A stretch of 13,957 bases of DNA from Deltaproteobacteria bacterium (GTDB lineage Bacteria; Myxococcota; Kuafuiibacteriia; Kuafuiibacteriales; Kuafuiibacteriaceae): positions 1 through 13,957 of the forward strand of contig JAVJQW010000045.1 of NCBI GenBank assembly GCA_040218735.1. The letters are read 5' to 3'. The stretch's first letter is position 1. Each line of letters begins with the position of its first letter. This document shows positions 2,801-11,038 of the stretch, piece by piece. Under the pieces are notes generated by a model that saw only the letters and a list, made by a program, of their open reading frames with translations, was not told where the DNA came from and searched no databases. A program made the position numbers and the translations under genes.

Positions 2801-3805
2801 CTACGCCTCCGCCGTCGGCGCGCGCTCGAGGTCGGCGCGCCGAAAGCCGCTGGCCTCCGCGTGGGCGGTGATGGCGAACGCCGCGTCGTAGGCGCGCTGC
2901 AGCGCGAGCGCGTCGAGCACTCCTTCGCGGTAGAGCGCCTCCCACGCCCTTCGGGACCGTGCGTAGCGGCGCATGCGCCGGCGCGACAGCTTCAGCACGC
3001 CGGGATAGATACGAAAGCCGAGGAACGAGAGCCCCGCGTGGCTCCGCTGCACGAAGCCTGGCCCCTTCGGGCGGAGATCGAGCACCTCCTGCAGGAGCAT
3101 CGCCGCCATCGTCCGAACGCGCTCCGCCTCCGCGCGCGTCTGCGTCCACGCGACCACGTCGTCCATGTAGCGGACGTAGCCTCGCACGCGGCCGTCCTCG
3201 GCGAGGCACCGGTCGAGCGGCGCGAGGTAGAAGTTCGCGAAGCTCTGCGACGTCAGCGACCCGATCGGGAGCCCGCGCCCCGCACCGAAGCCCCGGACGA
3301 TGCGGCGCACCAGTGCCCGCACTTCGCGGTCTTTCAGCTTGCGATCCAACGCCGTGCACAACCGGTCGTGGGGGATGCTCGCGAAGTACTTCGCGACATC
3401 GAGCTTCACGTACCAGGGCCAGCGCCGCGTGTGCACCTGCGCGCGCTGGACCGCGGCGAGGCTCCCCTTCCCGACGCGGCACGCGAACGTGTCGTCGACG
3501 AGGGCGCGGTCGAGCGTCGGTCCGATCGCGGCCATCAAGGCGTGGTGCACCACGCGGTCCTCGAACACCGGCGCGTGGATGACGCGCGGCTTCGGATCGC
3601 GAATGGAGAACCGTCGATACACATGGCTCGGGGCCGTTCCTTGGCGGAGGCCGTCGCCGAGCGCGGCCAGGTTGTCGTACGGCCGTCCGCGGAAGCGCTC
3701 CACGTCCTCGCGGCCCGTCTTGCCGCGCGCGGCGCGATGAAAGGCCGAGGCGAGCGCGCCGAGGTTCGCGACGTCGTCGAGCGTCGCGCGGCAGCGCTGT
3801 ACCAT
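2801..3805 (-). CDS. DGR reverse transcriptase (~334 aa)
   Basis: KPRVIHAPVFEDRVVHHAL, KLDVAKYFASIPH, GLPIGSLTSQSFANFYL (DGR-type SQ motif), YVRYMDD catalytic motif, FLGFRI. Start ATG 3805 overlaps the hrdc stop (TGATG). No maturase or endonuclease extension. Confidence 0.95.
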   Translation of the reverse strand: MVQRCRATLDDVANLGALASAFHRAARGKTGREDVERFRGRPYDNLAALGDGLRQGTAPSHVYRRFSIRDPKPRVIHAPVFEDRVVHHALMAAIGPTLDRALVDDTFACRVGKGSLAAVQRAQVHTRRWPWYVKLDVAKYFASIPHDRLCTALDRKLKDREVRALVRRIVRGFGAGRGLPIGSLTSQSFANFYLAPLDRCLAEDGRVRGYVRYMDDVVAWTQTRAEAERVRTMAAMLLQEVLDLRPKGPGFVQRSHAGLSFLGFRIYPGVLKLSRRRMRRYARSRRAWEALYREGVLDALALQRAYDAAFAITAHAEASGFRRADLERAPTAEA

Positions 3806-4281
3806 CAGGACACCACCGTCGGGAGGAGGAGCTCGCGCAGCAGCCCGAGGAACGCGGCGCCGTACTTGTCGACACGCCGTTCGCTCACGCCCGAGATGCG
3901 TCCGAGCGCCGCCTTCGAGGTCATGCGGTCCGTCACCATCTGCGCGAGCTGCTCGTTCGTGAACACGGAGTAGAGAGGCACGCCCGCTTCTGCGGCCTTG
4001 CGCTTTCGCAGCTCGCGAAGTCGCGCGAACACCGCGAAGTCCGACTCCGAAAGCACCTCGCGATAGTCCACCTTCGGTGACCGCGACGTCGTCGTCGTCG
4101 TCGTTTCCTCCGCCCTCGCGGCATCGGCGTAGGTGACACAGATGGCCCACGTCGCCGCGCCGTGCTCCGTCACGAGGTGACGGTCGACCGCCAACACGTT
4201 GCGCTGCGCGAGGAACTTGTTGAGGGCTTCCCAGCCCGGACGTGGGTCGAGGACGGGGATAGTGAAGAATTCGAGTTTCAT
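3805..4281 (-). CDS. HRDC-domain DGR accessory protein
   Basis: C-terminal FARLRELRKRKAAEAGVPLYSVFTNEQLAQM...ALGRISGVSERRVDKYGAAFL is an HRDC domain. Translationally coupled to the RT; hrdc is a known DGR accessory gene class. Confidence 0.88.
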   Translation of the reverse strand: MKLEFFTIPVLDPRPGWEALNKFLAQRNVLAVDRHLVTEHGAATWAICVTYADAARAEETTTTTTSRSPKVDYREVLSESDFAVFARLRELRKRKAAEAGVPLYSVFTNEQLAQMVTDRMTSKAALGRISGVSERRVDKYGAAFLGLLRELLLPTVVS

Positions 4282-4316: not shown

Positions 4317-4469
4317 CGCCGGCGCGTCCCGCGCCGGCGCTCGGGACGGCTCCGCCGTCGGTCCTCCGAGCGACCCAGGAGCGTGTCCATGCATCGCCTC
4401 AGCCACGACTGTTCTTGCGTAACCCCTCCGGGCTCGGCGGCTCCGCCACGGGGACTCCCCCTCCGGGGG
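4317..4469 (-). other. cluster of GGA-loop hairpins 3' of VR2
   Basis: Coding strand CCCCC-GGA-GGGGG (4469-4457), GTGGC-GGA-GCCGC (4449-4437), GACGGC-GGA-GCCGTC (4359-4345) and CGCCGGCGCG-GGA-CGCGCCGGCG (4339-4317, 10-bp stem). Confidence 0.65.
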
Positions 4470-7400
4470 CTCGACCTCGGGCAAGCCGGAACCCGACGCC
4501 CGCGTGGCGAAAGTCGCGGTGGGAGGCGCGGCGGTACGCCGCGCGGACGTACCGCGCGCTGCCGACCCACGAGCCGCCACGCGAGACGCGGCTCGGGCGC
4601 TCCCCTGGCTCCGCCAGGGGGTCAGTGACAGGAGCGTCCGGGTACGGATCAGGCCTGCCATCGGCTCCGTCAGCGCACCACTCCCAGATATTCCCCAGCA
4701 TGTCGTATAGGCCCCACGGGTTCGGGATCTTGGTTCGCACGGCACGCGTCCCAGCCTTCGGGGTCGGGTACTGCATTTCGCCCCAGTCCGAGGTGTCGTG
4801 CCCCTCCTCGAGGTCGTAGCCCTGGCCGCTGTTGCCTCCGTACAAAGCGATGGCGTCGAGCGCCGGAGCGTTGCGATCGCCGAGAATCTCGATCGGCCCG
4901 CCGTAAGTCGCCGCCGTGGTCCCTGCGCGGCACGCATACTCCCACTCCGCCTCGGTCGGCAGCCGCAGCGCCAGCTCGACGTGCTGTCGGTTCAGCGCCG
5001 CCATGAACGCCACCGCATCGTCCCACGACACGTTCTCCACCGGCCGGTCGCGGGTTCGAAAGCGACTCGGGTTGGCCTCCTTGCCGAGCACCGCCTCGTA
5101 GAGCGCCTGCGTGCACGGCGTCTCCGCCAGCCAGTAACCCTGGGTCAGCGTGACTTGGTGCTGCTTCTCTCGATTGAAGCGCCCCGGTTCGTCTTCGGGC
5201 GAACCCATCATGAAGCGGCCCGGCGGAATCCAACGCATCCGGATCACCTCCGGCACCACCCGCGTCTCCACCTCGACGTCCGCGAACAGTCCGAACCGAT
5301 CGCGCCCGACTCCCGAAGCCCACTCGGGTCGTTCGAAGGGTTCAAGATCGAGCGACACGAGATCGGTCTCGAGCCGAACCGGCGCGCGCAGATCGATCGG
5401 GATGCGCGTGTCGGCGTCCAGCCGAACGCTGCGGATCACGTGCGGCTCGGTCTCGCGCGTCCCGCGCGGCCCGGCCGAGCTGGAGCTGGAAGCCGGCTCC
5501 GCCGGCCCCGGACTGGACTGGGCTCGACCTCGGGCAAGCCGGAAGCCGACGTGCTCGAGGCGATCGTCGCGGTGGAACGCGTAGCGGAACGCCGCGCGGA
5601 CGCTCCTCGCGAAGTCGAGCCACGAGCCGCCACGCATGACGCGGTACGGGCGCTCCCCTGGCTCCGCCAGGGGGTCCGTGACGGGGCCGTCGGGGTACGG
5701 ATCAGGCTCGCCCCAGCCCTTCGCCCCGTCGGCGCACCACTCGCGGACGTTCCCGAGCATGTCGTGCAGGCCCCATGCGTTGGGCTCGCGGGTCTTGACG
5801 TCGTGGGTCTCGCCCTCGCTGTTCTCGGCGTACCAAGCGACTGCACCCAACGGGCCATAGGGCGCCTCAGCGGAGCCGGCGCGACACGCGCGCTCCCACT
5901 GCGCCTCGGTGGGTAGAACGAGGTCGAGCCCCGGGACCTGCGCGTTCAGCGTCGCCAGGAAGACTTGCACGTCGTCGAAGCTCACTTGCTCGACGGGTCG
6001 CTGAGGCCCCTTGAAGCCGGACGGCTCGTCGTTCATCACCGCCGACCAAAGCGCCTGCGTGCACGGCGTCTCGGCCAACCAATACCCCTCGCTCAACGTC
6101 ACCTCGTGCTGTGTCTCGCCTTCGTGGCGCTCCTCCTCGTCCTCGGGTGAACCCATCAGGAACGTCCCGCCCGGGATCCACCGCATCACCTGCTCAACGC
6201 CCGCGACCTCGAACGATGCCCAGCGGCCGAACTGGTCGTTGCCCCCTCGGCTCGCCCACGCTGGCGCGAGCCGCTCCACGCGGAGCTTCGAACGCGTCGC
6301 CCGAAGGTCGATCGGCGAGTCCAGCACCGAGCCCAGCGACGTCAGGAACCCACCGCGCACATAGAGTCGGTGCGTCGCGCTCGCCGGCACGCCGGAGACC
6401 CGTCGCCCGTCGACGAGGTGCTGGAGGCGCCGGACCCATCGGCCCATGGCCTCGTCCGCCTCGAAGTCGATCTCGCCCTTGCGCTCGTCGAGGTGCTCGT
6501 ACCACGCCAGGGCCCGGTCTCTGTCGGTAGCGCCAAAGGTGCCGGTCTCCAGCGCCCGCGTGAGCTTCTCCAGATGGAGGTGCGCGGCGCGGCGCGCGTC
6601 CTCGGGGACGAGGTGGGCCTGGCCCATCGCGAGCAGGCCGAGGTACGTCTCGACCCAGACCTGCGCTGCGGTCGCGGACGCCGCCAAACGCTCGACGGCG
6701 GCGCGGCGGACGCCTACATCTCGCGCGAGGAAGCCAGCTCGAAGCGCGGCACGCGCCTTGTTGCCGATGCGCGCGCGCCCGGTGATGGTGTGGCGGACAC
6801 GTGTGTCGTGCCAAGCGGCGCACTCCACCGCTGTGCTCCGTTCGCTCGTCGCCGCTCGGAGTCCGACTGCGTCGAAGACCACCGCGAAGGACATCAGCTC
6901 CAGAACGGCCGTGACCTCCTCGTGCGATACTGTCTCTACATCCGAGACCGACCGCCAAGGTGGCGGCACGCGACGCCGACCGAGCGATAGCATCAGCGTA
7001 GGTGTTCGATGCCTCGCGAGAGACCGACCCAACGCGGACCACGGAGACCGTCGCCTTGGCTCGGCGAGCGCCAAGAAGCGGTCGGGCGAACTCGCGACCG
7101 CCGCGACCGCCTGAGCCGTGAGCCCACACGGACCGTCCGGCAGGTACTCGACGACAACGCGCTCATGACCAAACGCACGAACGAGGCCGTCGAGGATCAC
7201 TTCGTAGTCCGCCGCGAAGGGGCGCGCGTCCGAGGTGTCGTCGACGAGCACCCAAACACGACCCTCGAGGTGCCGGACACGCTCGCGCGGAATTGGGTCG
7301 ATCGGGCGGCACGTGGCGTAGCGATCGACGAGCTCAATCGTGTCCACGGCTCCCCACGAAGCGTCCCCCGTGAGCAGACGACGAAGCTTCGACGCCCAAT

Positions 7401-7734
7401 CCTCCCACCGCACGCGTGGAGGCGGCACCGCGGGCGGGGGAGACGGGGCATGAAGCTCACGGGGAGTCATCGTCGGACCATTCCGACCGGCGAGCGGTTG
7501 AGAGGGATCCTCGAACTCGACGCGGCGAACGACACGTACGAAGGTCGCAGACGGCAACCGCTCCGACTCTGGCTCGAGCCCGGACGATCGGAGGTGCTCC
7601 ACACGAGAATTCGGAGCCGGGAGGACGACGCGGGGGTGATGGCTCATCCCGAGCATCGGCGCCACCCGGATGACCTCGTCGCGGTCCATCCGCACGAGCA
7701 TCCGGAGGAGGTCCGCTCGCCCGATCGTCTTCAC
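4399..7734 (-). CDS. ternary-system vWA component: degenerate vWA-like N-terminus, helical region, two tandem FGE-sulfatase (CLec) domains, each with a DGR VR (1111 aa)
   Basis: GTG start overlaps the MoxR stop (GTGA). GAVDTIELVDRYA...PIPRER then VWVLVDDTSDARPF resembles the vWA strand-1/MIDAS region in degenerate form. Two complete FGE domains at about 6265-5520 and 5335-4470. Confidence 0.85.
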   Translation of the reverse strand: MKTIGRADLLRMLVRMDRDEVIRVAPMLGMSHHPRVVLPAPNSRVEHLRSSGLEPESERLPSATFVRVVRRVEFEDPSQPLAGRNGPTMTPRELHAPSPPPAVPPPRVRWEDWASKLRRLLTGDASWGAVDTIELVDRYATCRPIDPIPRERVRHLEGRVWVLVDDTSDARPFAADYEVILDGLVRAFGHERVVVEYLPDGPCGLTAQAVAAVASSPDRFLALAEPRRRSPWSALGRSLARHRTPTLMLSLGRRRVPPPWRSVSDVETVSHEEVTAVLELMSFAVVFDAVGLRAATSERSTAVECAAWHDTRVRHTITGRARIGNKARAALRAGFLARDVGVRRAAVERLAASATAAQVWVETYLGLLAMGQAHLVPEDARRAAHLHLEKLTRALETGTFGATDRDRALAWYEHLDERKGEIDFEADEAMGRWVRRLQHLVDGRRVSGVPASATHRLYVRGGFLTSLGSVLDSPIDLRATRSKLRVERLAPAWASRGGNDQFGRWASFEVAGVEQVMRWIPGGTFLMGSPEDEEERHEGETQHEVTLSEGYWLAETPCTQALWSAVMNDEPSGFKGPQRPVEQVSFDDVQVFLATLNAQVPGLDLVLPTEAQWERACRAGSAEAPYGPLGAVAWYAENSEGETHDVKTREPNAWGLHDMLGNVREWCADGAKGWGEPDPYPDGPVTDPLAEPGERPYRVMRGGSWLDFARSVRAAFRYAFHRDDRLEHVGFRLARGRAQSSPGPAEPASSSSSAGPRGTRETEPHVIRSVRLDADTRIPIDLRAPVRLETDLVSLDLEPFERPEWASGVGRDRFGLFADVEVETRVVPEVIRMRWIPPGRFMMGSPEDEPGRFNREKQHQVTLTQGYWLAETPCTQALYEAVLGKEANPSRFRTRDRPVENVSWDDAVAFMAALNRQHVELALRLPTEAEWEYACRAGTTAATYGGPIEILGDRNAPALDAIALYGGNSGQGYDLEEGHDTSDWGEMQYPTPKAGTRAVRTKIPNPWGLYDMLGNIWEWCADGADGRPDPYPDAPVTDPLAEPGERPSRVSRGGSWVGSARYVRAAYRRASHRDFRHAGVGFRLARGRAPGGGVPVAEPPSPEGLRKNSRG
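4476..4601 (-). repeat. DGR variable repeat VR2 (C-terminal FGE domain)
   Basis: 126 bp versus TR: 21 mismatches, 18 at TR adenines and 3 not (4492, 4525, 4583). Encodes PSRVSRGGSWVGSARYVRAAYRRASHRDFRHAGVGFRLAR. Confidence 0.92.
5454..5506 (-). other. pair of GGA-loop hairpins 3' of VR3, inside the coding interdomain linker
   Basis: GCCGGC-GGA-GCCGGC (5506-5492) and CGCGCG-GGA-CGCGCG (5468-5454). Same order and similar spacing as after VR1. Confidence 0.65.
5529..5654 (-). repeat. DGR variable repeat VR3 (internal FGE domain)
   Basis: 126 bp versus TR: 14 mismatches, all at TR adenines. Encodes PYRVMRGGSWLDFARSVRAAFRYAFHRDDRLEHVGFRLAR. Confidence 0.95.
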
Positions 7735-8762
7735 GTCTCGTGTTTCGCGTTCTTATCGAAGAAGAACTCGCCAACGTCGTCGAGGAGCTCCTCCCGCGCC
7801 TTCGACACGCTGACGCCCCGCCTCTTCGCCTCGACGGGACCCAGGACGACGAGCGTGCGAAGGAGGTCGATGAGCTCGGCTTGTCCAGGAGCCGCAAGCC
7901 CGAGATCCGACAAACGCTTGCGGTCCGTGGCGAGCTGCTTCGCCGCCGTGCGTACGAGGTCGTCGCTGAGGATCGCCGCGTCGGGGAAGTGCGCGCGCCC
8001 CCTGTCGAACAGCCAATCCTCGTAGCCGTCGCCCTTCCCCATTCGGTGCACGACGCAGCGACGGAGGAACGCCTTGGGCAAGGTCCGCTCTTCGTTCGTG
8101 GTAATGACGACGAGCGGCGGGACGCCGGGCTGGGCCACCTCTTCGAAGCCCAGCGCATCGAAGCGACGTTCACCCAATGCTTCGAGCAAGCCGTTGGGGA
8201 CGGACTCCTCGGCCTTATCGATCTCGTCGATCAGGACCACGACGCCGTCGCGCTTCGCGTCGAACGCGTCCGGGTGCCAGGGTCGTTCGAGCGTCTCCAG
8301 TCGCTCGTCACCCGCGCTCGGCGGCTCCCCGAAGCGCGCACGAAAGCGCTGCTCCGTAGCTCCTTGCCAGTCGAACGCCCACCACAGCACCCCCGGCTCC
8401 ACGAAGTAGCGCTCCTCGAGCAACACCTCGTCCTTGAATTTCGGCGTCGCCTGAAGCTGCGCCCTCGCCAGGCGTCGAACGGCGTCATACGTGTACAGGA
8501 GGTCCCGCGACTCCGTCCGGGCGTCGACGACCTTCGAGACGAAGGCGCGACCCGTGTGCACCGCGGCAGCGCGGGCGAGCTGGCTCTTGCCGACGCCCGG
8601 GAGTCCACGGAGCAGGAGTGGTCTCGAGGCTGCGAGCGCGGCGTTGACGGCGCGGATGTCCTGCGCGTCGAAGACGTGTGGACACGCTTCGCGCCCGCCA
8701 ATGGGAGGCAGCGCATAGCGCTCATCGGGCTCGACCTCGAGCAAGCGGGGGGTATCGGTCAC
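7731..8762 (-). CDS. MoxR-family AAA+ ATPase
   Basis: Walker A GLPGVGKS, Walker B VVLIDEIDKA, sensor-1/Arg finger VITTNEERTLPKAFLRRC, and YTYDAVRRLARAQ insert. GTGA overlaps at both ends. Confidence 0.93.
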   Translation of the reverse strand: MTDTPRLLEVEPDERYALPPIGGREACPHVFDAQDIRAVNAALAASRPLLLRGLPGVGKSQLARAAAVHTGRAFVSKVVDARTESRDLLYTYDAVRRLARAQLQATPKFKDEVLLEERYFVEPGVLWWAFDWQGATEQRFRARFGEPPSAGDERLETLERPWHPDAFDAKRDGVVVLIDEIDKAEESVPNGLLEALGERRFDALGFEEVAQPGVPPLVVITTNEERTLPKAFLRRCVVHRMGKGDGYEDWLFDRGRAHFPDAAILSDDLVRTAAKQLATDRKRLSDLGLAAPGQAELIDLLRTLVVLGPVEAKRRGVSVSKAREELLDDVGEFFFDKNAKHET

Positions 8763-10240
8763 GGTGGGGCCTCGTCGAACAAGGGCGCGATCGTCTCGAG
8801 CATATGCGCCTCGATCGTCAGGATCACGTCATCCTCGGAAGCACGCAAGAACAGGACGTCCAGATCGATCTCAGCGGCTTCGAGTTCGGCTTTGAAGTCC
8901 TCTGCGAACTGCGCATCGACCCGGTCTTCACGAAAAACGACGAGGTATCGGCGCTCTCCACGCTTCGCCTGCTTCTTGGTCGCGCGCGCCATGGCCCTCT
9001 TGAGAATTCCCTGATGCTGGCTAGCTCGATACTGCTTTCGCTGCGCATAGCTCGCGACCGTCTGCGTGACCGCGGCGATCACTTCCTTCGCCTGCGCACC
9101 GCCGGTCATCGCCGTGACGTCCACCTCGAGGCGATGGACAGAGTCGAGCTCGTTCTTGTCCCGTACGAAGTCGGCAGGGCGACCCATGGCAGCGGCCGCC
9201 ATGCACTCCGCGATGGCATTCGAGTAGCCACTACATACGAGAATCGGAGATCCCGCGACGAGCGATTCGGTCACCTCTTCGCCTCGATCTCGCAACCCCA
9301 CAACCCCTGGCAGGAGCGCGCATACCCACCGCGCAAGAACAGCTCGACCTCCGGCTGGTGGGTTCTCGGCGACCTCCTCCACGGTCTCGAGGAGGTCATC
9401 CGGCGATTGCGACTCGCAGGCCTTCCCGAGGTCGACGGGGGTCGTCCTGTCGTCGAGACCGAACGTCTGGCACAGGCGGAGGCGAAGCCACGCGGCCTCC
9501 GCGCCGGAGAGGGCCGCAGCGATCTCGTTGCGCTGCTCCTCGCGGATGCGCGCGTACCGCTCACGACGGGCGTGGCCCAGCTCTTCGGCGGACAGCTCCG
9601 TCGGCGCACCGGGCGCTTCGGAGTCCAGCGCACCGGCACCCGCCAGGAATGGGTGACTTGGCACGGCCCCTCGCAGCGTTCCGACAACGTGGGCGATCGG
9701 AATGATCCAACCCGACTTCGGCTCGGACCTCTCGCGGGAGACGGTCAATCCGGCGAGGTAGAAAACGCCAGCTTCCTCGATGAACACCGGGCCGCCGCTG
9801 AACCCCTTCGCCGTCTCGGCTGCGAGCTGCCAGACCTGCCGTTTCGGGTCGTAGCTGGACAGCTGTGTCGGGTGGGACTCGTAGGATCTGGTCGCTGTTC
9901 CGCGATACCCATGGAGTTGAACGGAGTCTCCGAACGACAAGCCTCGATCCCAGCAGGTCGCCGACAAGCCAAACCTCAGCGGCGCCGCGAGCTCGAGGAA
10001 CACGAAGTCATCTCGCTCGGGAGGCTCATCCATCGGCATTTCGGGCAGGACACGTTGGACTGGGCGCCAGAAGTCAGGCTGGTCGCCGCCCTGAACGTGT
10101 ACGGTCAGGTCTTTCGGATCGCGGCCGACGATGCCGTGCGCGCAGGTCAGAGCGAGGCCGTCCGTGAGGAACACGGCGGAGAGGATCGGTGTGCCGTTCG
10201 CCCGGACTCGGCCGACGAGCAAGCTAGGCCTCTTCGTCAC
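8759..10240 (-). CDS. trypsin-like serine peptidase fused to an uncharacterised C-terminal region (VMAP-position component of a MoxR/vWA ternary system)
   Basis: Catalytic triad motifs LTCAHG, DDFVFLEL and KGFSGGPVF in the first ~190 aa. About 280 aa of helical/alpha-beta C-terminus. Sits directly upstream of MoxR. Confidence 0.8.
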   Translation of the reverse strand: MTKRPSLLVGRVRANGTPILSAVFLTDGLALTCAHGIVGRDPKDLTVHVQGGDQPDFWRPVQRVLPEMPMDEPPERDDFVFLELAAPLRFGLSATCWDRGLSFGDSVQLHGYRGTATRSYESHPTQLSSYDPKRQVWQLAAETAKGFSGGPVFIEEAGVFYLAGLTVSRERSEPKSGWIIPIAHVVGTLRGAVPSHPFLAGAGALDSEAPGAPTELSAEELGHARRERYARIREEQRNEIAAALSGAEAAWLRLRLCQTFGLDDRTTPVDLGKACESQSPDDLLETVEEVAENPPAGGRAVLARWVCALLPGVVGLRDRGEEVTESLVAGSPILVCSGYSNAIAECMAAAAMGRPADFVRDKNELDSVHRLEVDVTAMTGGAQAKEVIAAVTQTVASYAQRKQYRASQHQGILKRAMARATKKQAKRGERRYLVVFREDRVDAQFAEDFKAELEAAEIDLDVLFLRASEDDVILTIEAHMLETIAPLFDEAPP

Positions 10241-10583
10241 CGGGATCGCCTGCCGCCGGGCCCTTGGAAGGCTCGTTCTTCCAGAGCGCTTCGATCTCGA
10301 TCGCCGCCTCTGCCGTTCCTTTCGTCACGATGGGTATGCCAACCTCACCGGCGAACTTCAGCCCGAACTTGACCTTCAACTCGTCAGGGCGGTTGGCCTT
10401 CGTGAAGGCCCCGAGCACGACGTCACACGTCGACGCGATCGATCCCCGGAGTTCCTCGACGGCGTCGATGATCTTGTCGGTGGCGTCGGTCCGTTCGGTC
10501 CCCGAGGAATCGTCCCCAGGGAGCTCGGCGACCCCCTCCTCCACCTCAACGAGGAACTCTCCAACCTTGATGACTCTCCCCAC
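10224..10583 (-). CDS. Trypco1 / CU044_2847-like trypsin-co-occurring protein (~119 aa)
   Basis: PDELKVKFGLKFAGEVGIPIVTKGTAEAAIEIEALW matches the family's PDE..V.FG......G......G..EA...V...W pattern. GTG 10583 has SD GGGAGG; the stop overlaps the trypsin gene start by 17 bp. Confidence 0.78.
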   Translation of the reverse strand: MGRVIKVGEFLVEVEEGVAELPGDDSSGTERTDATDKIIDAVEELRGSIASTCDVVLGAFTKANRPDELKVKFGLKFAGEVGIPIVTKGTAEAAIEIEALWKNEPSKGPAAGDPGDEEA

Positions 10584-10648: not shown

Positions 10649-11038
10649 CTAGAAGGGGATTTCGTTCTCCCCCGGCACCGGCTCGTGCGGCTCGCCGCTC
10701 GTCTTCGAGCCCTCGGCCAGGAACAGCACCCGGTCCGCCTTCACCTCGGTCGTCCAGCGCTTGTTGCCGTTCTTGTCCTCCCACTCGCTGTTCTGCAGGC
10801 GCCCCTCGACGAGGACGCCGCGGCCGCGACGCAGGTGCTCGCCGCACGTCTCGCCCTGCTTTCCCCAGACGACGATGCGGTGCCAGTCGGTCCGCTCCTG
10901 CATCGCGCCGTCGACGTCCTTCCAGCGCTCCGTCGTCGCGATGCGGAAGTTCGCGACGGCCGTTCCGCCCTGCGTGTAGCGCATCTCGGGATCCGCACCG
11001 AGGTTCCCCATCAGCATCACCTTGTTGAAGTTGCTCAT
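10649..11038 (-). CDS. ssb: single-stranded DNA-binding protein (129 aa)
   Basis: [46 protein letters not shown] and acidic tail ENEIPF. SD AAGGAG before ATG 11038. Confidence 0.95.

Follow-up and report, generated by a model that had tools for sequence, protein, structure and literature searches.

DGR targets that carry several VRs in a single reading frame have been described in a number of studies. An ORF made up of tandem FGE domains was reported to contain three VRs (Schillinger 2012, PMC3521204), and a target of three FGE domains whose VRs, two of them internal, all appear mutagenised was presented together with the remark that an internal IMH must also serve as coding sequence (Wu 2018, PMC5758913). 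In a later survey, 31 DGRs have more than one VR in the same ORF (Yan 2019, PMC6642488). MoxR-vWA ternary systems with DGR-linked FGS fusions were defined by Kaur 2020 (PMC7159879), and a protein combining vWA with three tandem VR-bearing CLec domains, encoded beside MoxR, Trypco1 and trypsin genes, was described by Dore 2024 (PMC10907252), whose metagenomic data show that the frequency of variation differs among the VRs of a single target; TR codons that avoid nonsense are reported in the same paper. In both of the latter papers, the anti-invader activity of the MoxR-vWA ternary systems is a prediction.

We analyzed a stretch of 13,957 nt (hereafter the window; coordinates are window positions) that forms an entire contig (C69) of an 11.6 Mb genome and contains a locus of this kind. 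The reading of its long target as a DGR target with two VRs is correct; the architecture has already been published, and the locus is a new example of it only. The target is likely a vWA-type sensor, diversified by the DGR, within a defence locus of MoxR, trypsin and Trypco1; its two sites probably bind in parallel (OR).

Organization of the locus and of its long target

The target, the DGR and the MoxR operon are all encoded on the minus strand, in the order Trypco1, trypsin-like peptidase, MoxR-like ATPase, 1111-residue target, HRDC gene, RT, TR and short CLec-only target, with genes that overlap or nearly abut. The operon begins with a gene for a Trypco1 adaptor (10224–10580; PF19493, E 2.7e-17), followed by one for a trypsin-like peptidase with an unassigned C-terminal region (8759–10240; a weak match, below the cut-off) and one for an AAA+ ATPase (7731–8762; AAA_5, E 2.8e-12). 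From family knowledge and gene context we take the latter to be MoxR; homologues of it occupy the same position in the related loci L016, L020, L021 and L022. The GTG start of the target gene (4399–7734) overlaps the stop codon of the ATPase gene (GTGA). Downstream lie an HRDC-domain accessory gene (3805–4281; PF00570, E 2.9e-18) and, adjoining it, the reverse transcriptase gene (2801–3805; RVT_1, E 5.7e-12), whose frame is intact and which encodes a YMDD motif; we place this RT in the DGR class based on the TR/VR pairing rather than on an RT tree. The TR (2628–2755) contains 28 adenines, lies 45 nt from the RT gene and is followed by IMH*. The short CLec-only target (1579–2445) with VR1 completes the series. 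RT, TR, accessory gene, three VRs and the whole MoxR operon thus fit in about 9 kb, and the operon order and overlaps agree with published loci. No Avd gene was found above the cut-off in the genome, so that activity would rest on the HRDC accessory. A zincin-like MPTase-PolyVal fragment (2–265), an SprT-like gene (750–1457) and an SSB gene (10649–11038) suggest a mobile island; a large Ig-like repeat protein is encoded at 11068–13860.

The long target is a single open frame (7734–4399) of 1111 residues with a calculated mass of 123 kDa, made up of a CoxE-like vWA/helical module, a first CLec/FGE domain with VR3, a linker and a second CLec/FGE domain with VR2; two stretches match PF03781. A preliminary description of this DNA had correctly recognized one polypeptide with two FGE domains, but the extent given there (4399–6270) covers only the last two thirds of the gene, which starts at 7734. 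This start is backed by an N-terminal motif conserved in homologues; a profile built from 84 other N-termini gives 129.8 bits (E 7e-40) for that of the window, compared with 4.6 bits for the best of 200 shuffles.

Domain 1 (residues 493–739; 5518–6258) is TvpA-like and without the FGE cysteine insert. A linker (residues 740–803; 5326–5517), predicted to be disordered over residues 739–765 and then to form short strands, connects it to domain 2 (residues 805–1090; 4465–5322), with which it shares 55% identity. TvpA is the best sequence match for the CLec domains (E 3.8e-22). A single-sequence AlphaFold model of the target was unusable (pLDDT 35.2); the model based on an alignment of 65 rows has a pLDDT of 84.7 and a pTM of 0.59. 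As for the tandem structure that the preliminary description proposed to model, both CLec domains are folded, but residues 739–765 are of low confidence and the mutual orientation of the domains is not readable from the output. Every match listed by Foldseek is an FGE-fold protein, TvpA (PDB 2Y3C, E 3.1e-18) being the best. In FGE, a cysteine-bearing insert after the RGGS motif has a catalytic role. Alignment to PDB 2Q17 reveals that this insert is missing from domain 1, which rules out a catalytic FGE function, and in domain 2 no cysteine follows residue 1020. The highest 19-residue hydropathy of the protein is 1.92 and falls within a predicted helix, making a cytoplasmic location likely.

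Contigs from several sequencing runs end at the VRs, and the linker contains in-frame GTG codons, as might be expected if an assembly error, or the joining of two separate genes through their repeats, had produced the long frame. This reading is largely refuted and hardly credible. Indeed, the same junction is present in 4/4 database cluster members (possibly one strain) on contigs of up to 135,760 nt, the relative P0002 has the same linker, likewise open, and one contig, from what is possibly the source run, spans 4469–6400 with zero differences. The two domains, only 55% identical, each group with the domains in the same position in other organisms and, by eye, no obvious ribosome-binding site precedes the linker GTGs.

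The N-terminal module (residues 1–485; 6280–7734) looks like a degenerate CoxE-type vWA, an assignment that is transitive and built on sequence and secondary-structure pattern. Direct searches of Pfam, NCBIfam and the PDB with the N-terminus gave no match, a profile of its homologues found nothing in the PDB, and a word-indexed search with residues 100–485 recovered the window's own cluster only. Over residues 115–195 the module aligns with 40% identity to a protein scoring above the VWA_CoxE cut-off, and 2 of the 14 aligned N-terminal homologues match this family. The first MIDAS-position Asp (D165) is invariant, the remaining MIDAS motif is degenerate, and the structure model of the module displays an alpha/beta pattern. 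The N-terminus of one top homologue passes the SAV_2336 N-terminal model. For the third component, neither subtype model gave a match: VMAP-C (PF20028) has none in the genome at E ≤ 10, and iSTAND (PF19995) has none either, Atlas leads pointing weakly to the latter (0.79–0.81, under 0.9). Compared with P0002, the N-terminal module is 28% identical, whereas the domain bodies are 84% and the linker (residues 736–803, 66/68 residues) 97% identical; the difference between 28% and 84% suggests that N-terminal modules have likely been exchanged on a shared DGR cassette.

Two variable repeats in one reading frame

TR and VRs were compared over 128 nt, using TR positions 2755–2628. The internal VR3 (5529–5656) has 15 mismatches to the TR, all of them at adenines (chance 2.8e-12), in agreement with the A-only pattern originally proposed. 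VR1 (1729–1602) is likewise A-only with 19 mismatches, and the C-terminal VR2 (4476–4603) has 19 mismatches at adenines and 3 elsewhere. A stand-alone CLec gene remote from the window (G000:C52:42508–43260, plus strand; locus L024) contains a TR-matched VR (C52:43103–43235; 22 A and 6 non-A mismatches), an IMH-like end and three GGA hairpins, and is probably a past or trans target of this TR. VR3 ends 1130 nt ahead of the stop codon, as its description as an internal repeat about 1.1 kb upstream implied, and its start lies 1053 nt from that of VR2. As 23 of 128 bases differ between them, neither VR2 nor VR3 is a duplicate of the other. Directly after the repeat, the same two bases set all four VRs apart from the TR, and five matching bases follow, the IMH/IMH* pattern known from other DGRs (Wu 2018). 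The open frame together with the TR/VR pairing establishes a single polypeptide with two TR-matched VRs. The claim that VR3 has an IMH and hairpins of its own also holds, its IMH-like 3' end resembling those of the other VRs and being accompanied by an in-frame hairpin.

Hairpins with a GRA triloop and a stem of at least 5 bp are found within 100 nt 3' of 4/4 VRs, against a genome background of 0.0076 per 100 nt, and none occurs 3' of the TR; such in-gene hairpins at DGR targets have been described (Paul 2015, PMC4372165). The one 3' of the IMH-like end of VR3 (5492–5506; GGA triloop, 6 bp) is in frame within the coding linker, a second GGA-triloop hairpin follows at 5468–5454, and VR2 has a GGA hairpin at 4469–4457. 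In addition, identical 8-bp GGA-triloop hairpins are located directly 5' of VR3 (5655–5673) and of VR2 (4620–4602), both in coding sequence; no such 5' hairpin was found before VR1, the TR, the C52 VR or 9/9 examined VRs of relatives. This pair may be a by-product of local homogenisation, 51/60 bases being identical there. The stretch between the target stop codon and the HRDC gene (4359–4317, minus strand) contains another two GGA-triloop hairpins, of 6 and 10 bp, and the sequence directly 3' of the TR (2627–2595, minus strand) folds into a strong hairpin.

Eighteen TR codons contain adenine, and only AAG at 2754, on the 5' edge, can become a stop codon (TAG); the equivalent codon reads GAG in 4/4 VRs. 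AAC never gives a stop (10.1101/2024.11.15.621889; Dore 2024). The idea that codon choice protects the frame is therefore sound insofar as the TR is almost stop-proof, but the exception named along with it, GAG turning into TAG, is impossible, as GAG yields only GNG. With a TR so nearly stop-proof, the internal site could be rewritten without truncating domain 2.

Comparison with P0002 shows variation in both repeats. The A-containing codons differ at 13 of 16 positions in VR3 and again in VR2, compared with 1 of 25 other codons in VR3 (p 4e-7) and 0 of 25 in VR2 (p 3e-8), so that VR3 is not frozen across lineages. In this between-lineage comparison, the proposal that VR2 and VR3 are each diversified is upheld. 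Within the lineage, where the data are contigs, no variation in a population was seen: the VRs are identical in 4/4 cluster members and a contig of sample S2 covering VR2 contains no difference. None of the holders listed is recorded as RNA, which counts neither way. These identities, along with the lack of an Avd above the cut-off, would be expected if the architecture were real but both VRs recorded past retrohoming and were no longer changing in the lineage. We consider such a silent DGR unlikely. Neither the frame nor the motif of the RT is disrupted, and every difference of VR3 and VR1 from the present TR lies at an adenine, position 2644 being unchanged in both. In addition, the cluster members are possibly one strain, and the within-sample data are contigs, from which rare variants are lost.

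Sample S2 also contains a second TR allele, whose base at 2644 is that of VR2 and of the C52 VR and explains one non-A mismatch of each; VR1 and VR3 have the base of the window TR. This fits VR3 having been overwritten more recently than VR2, although the direction of the change at 2644 is not established. The P0002 peptides had predicted a second TR allele differing at codons 2661 and 2655; six differences were found elsewhere and none there. Three residues in the two VRs of P0002 (two internal, one terminal) are explained by neither TR allele, and we do not equate the second genotype in sample S2 with P0002. Two more VR-like contigs in S2, whose gene of origin was not assigned, differ from the TR mostly at adenines.

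Tandem domains in homologues and the logic of two sites

Among the best 120 whole-protein homologues, one of which is the window's own cluster, 72 have two domains, 41 three, 6 four and 1 six, in a ranking that favours multi-domain proteins. The layout with two VRs, regarded as unusual in the preliminary description, is thus neither unpublished nor rare in this set, in which 120/120 proteins are multi-domain. As for the survey of one versus two FGE domains proposed there, the top 120 carry two to six, and one-domain forms do exist, found through the N-terminus. A search by N-terminus alone found 23 proteins: three with a single complete CLec domain, two with a pair of them, and 18 that are fragments, short vWA-like proteins or other fusions. 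Among four related MoxR-RT loci, L016 and L021 have one domain before the HRDC gene and L022 has two. The target region of L020 / L023 contains one CLec domain split across two reading frames, by a frameshift or an assembly error. The two-domain target of L022 (G002:C156, 5401–9540, minus strand), from a genome of the same family, lies in the same operon layout; its internal VR has 15 A and 3 non-A mismatches to the TR, with an IMH and a hairpin, and its terminal VR is decayed (19 A and 29 non-A mismatches, no hairpin).

We also counted residues that AAC cannot reach (K, E, Q, M and W) in eight AAC-equivalent columns. They represent 13 of 1296 residues at internal sites (162 of 173 domains fitting the spacing) and 11 of 888 at terminal sites (111 of 117 domains), compared with 24.5% in the domain bodies and 5 of 24 in three non-target FGE proteins of the genome (counted by hand; a fourth did not fit the motif). 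Judged from these sequences, internal domains clearly bear the DGR signature as a rule, with the reservation that kin in the counts are not independent.

A tree of 44 domains was built, with VRs trimmed, from 19 of the 57 full-length two-domain homologues, mainly near matches, together with the window and L022. Domain 1 of the window groups with first domains (100/100 with P0002; 98/89 with P0005 and P0026) and domain 2 with the second domain of P0002 (100/100). A fresh internal duplication is ruled out by this grouping by position and by the 55% identity between the domains. For 118 domains, the best match is the domain at the same position in another protein in 80 cases, the sibling in 34 and another domain in 4. 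The grouping by position and the sibling matches point to tandem domains that are old here, and to tandems that have also arisen or been homogenised repeatedly.

The following mechanism would be consistent with known DGR biology. The RT would copy TR RNA with errors at adenines, and each cDNA would enter a single VR by way of the IMH and hairpin belonging to it, with the consequence that the two sites would change in separate events. Each site could encode about 10^14.5 possible peptides, and tandem repetition would be one more way of adding randomised binders, beside the short target of the window and the C52 target. The target may be a 'bispecific' receptor. Ligand binding by the CLec domains is predicted to be relayed through vWA and MoxR to the peptidase, as hypothesized also by Kaur 2020 and Dore 2024.

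The preliminary description suggested that the two domains might act as an AND gate or avidity sensor. Under that reading, the MoxR-peptidase module would fire only once ligand is engaged by both diversified domains. The domains are indeed old and distinct paralogues that group by position with those of relatives, the linker is identical at 66/68 residues in P0002, and a system that triggers death would benefit from a threshold. We nevertheless consider an AND gate improbable and the suggestion unsupported, because one-domain forms with the same N-terminus exist, L016 included, the terminal VR of L022 is decayed and the model has a low-confidence tether at residues 739–765. Moreover, domain number is labile, up to six, and it would be rare for a new ligand to suit two sites that are randomised independently. 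From the sequences and the model, OR logic, with the two sites broadening the repertoire in parallel, is the more likely and better-fitting reading. In P0002 the linker is better conserved than the domains (97% vs. 84%), which may point to a need for fixed geometry. In a further reading, the tandem-CLec vWA sensors would form a large family of receptors with two sites, the internal one being a complete DGR target and sometimes the principal one; here the protein would be a prokaryotic combinatorial receptor and a coincidence detector, acting through its conserved linker, with the 5' GGA hairpin marking both in-gene VRs and about 10^29 possible pairs. In the window it is the internal site whose TR match is free of non-A mismatches, and in L022 the internal VR is the sole survivor; taken as a whole, we give this reading quite a low probability.

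In the model of Kaur et al., the variable CLec domains would be freed as effectors or decoys by peptidase cleavage of the vWA protein, as proposed for VMAP ternary systems (Dore 2024; Kaur 2020). The disordered linker could serve as a cleavage site, and free-standing CLec-only targets are present in this genome. On the other hand, the cleavage step is hypothetical and a sensor role is favoured in Dore 2024, so that release appears very improbable; the DGR part of our findings is the same under sensor and effector models.

The locus is a clean and compact example of the published architecture, and only a demonstrated two-site logic would surprise. The starts of VR2 and VR3 are close enough (1053 nt) for single long reads to reveal whether each site is rewritten on its own, and the small size of the locus makes it suitable for reconstitution. 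The survey indicates that internal VRs are routine in the tandem-CLec target family rather than exceptions.

Comparison with described systems

None of the 15 papers listed, of 304 matches for myxobacterial DGRs, deals with a locus of this layout. In the surveys of Schillinger 2012 and Wu 2018, targets with several VRs are rare, whereas here 120/120 top matches, a biased set, are multi-domain. The three-FGE target of Marichromatium purpuratum 984 (PMC3521204) resembles the window target in that its single ORF of tandem FGE-sulfatase domains contains several VRs, but differs in its three domains and in belonging to a different phylum; it is perhaps identical with the CLec1 target with three VRs in Wu 2018 (PMC5758913). 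The TvpA DGR of Treponema denticola (PDB 2Y3C), corresponding to the HRDC-containing architecture C of Wu 2018, has an HRDC accessory and remote targets, as here, but its target differs in having a single CLec domain, in which the VR is terminal, and in lacking a vWA-MoxR context.

The locus shares with the MoxR-vWA ternary conflict systems (PMC7159879) a MoxR gene, a putative vWA-FGS fusion and a third gene bearing a peptidase, in linkage with a DGR; domain models assign it to neither the VMAP nor the iSTAND subtype. Also close in layout are DGR 4 and DGR 5 of Thiohalocapsa PB-PSB1 (Dore 2024). Their targets, encoded next to genes for MoxR, Trypco1 and a trypsin-like protein, have an N-terminal vWA, as is probable here, followed by CLec domains in tandem, each bearing a VR. 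These targets have three CLec domains instead of two, and VMAP and vWA are recognised there, whereas the vWA here is degenerate and neither VMAP-C nor iSTAND is matched. The accessory gene of the window encodes an HRDC domain, and the strings 'Myxococc' and 'HRDC' are absent from the main text of Dore 2024 (PMC10907252). In its third component, the locus is closer to the description of DGR 9 in the same paper.
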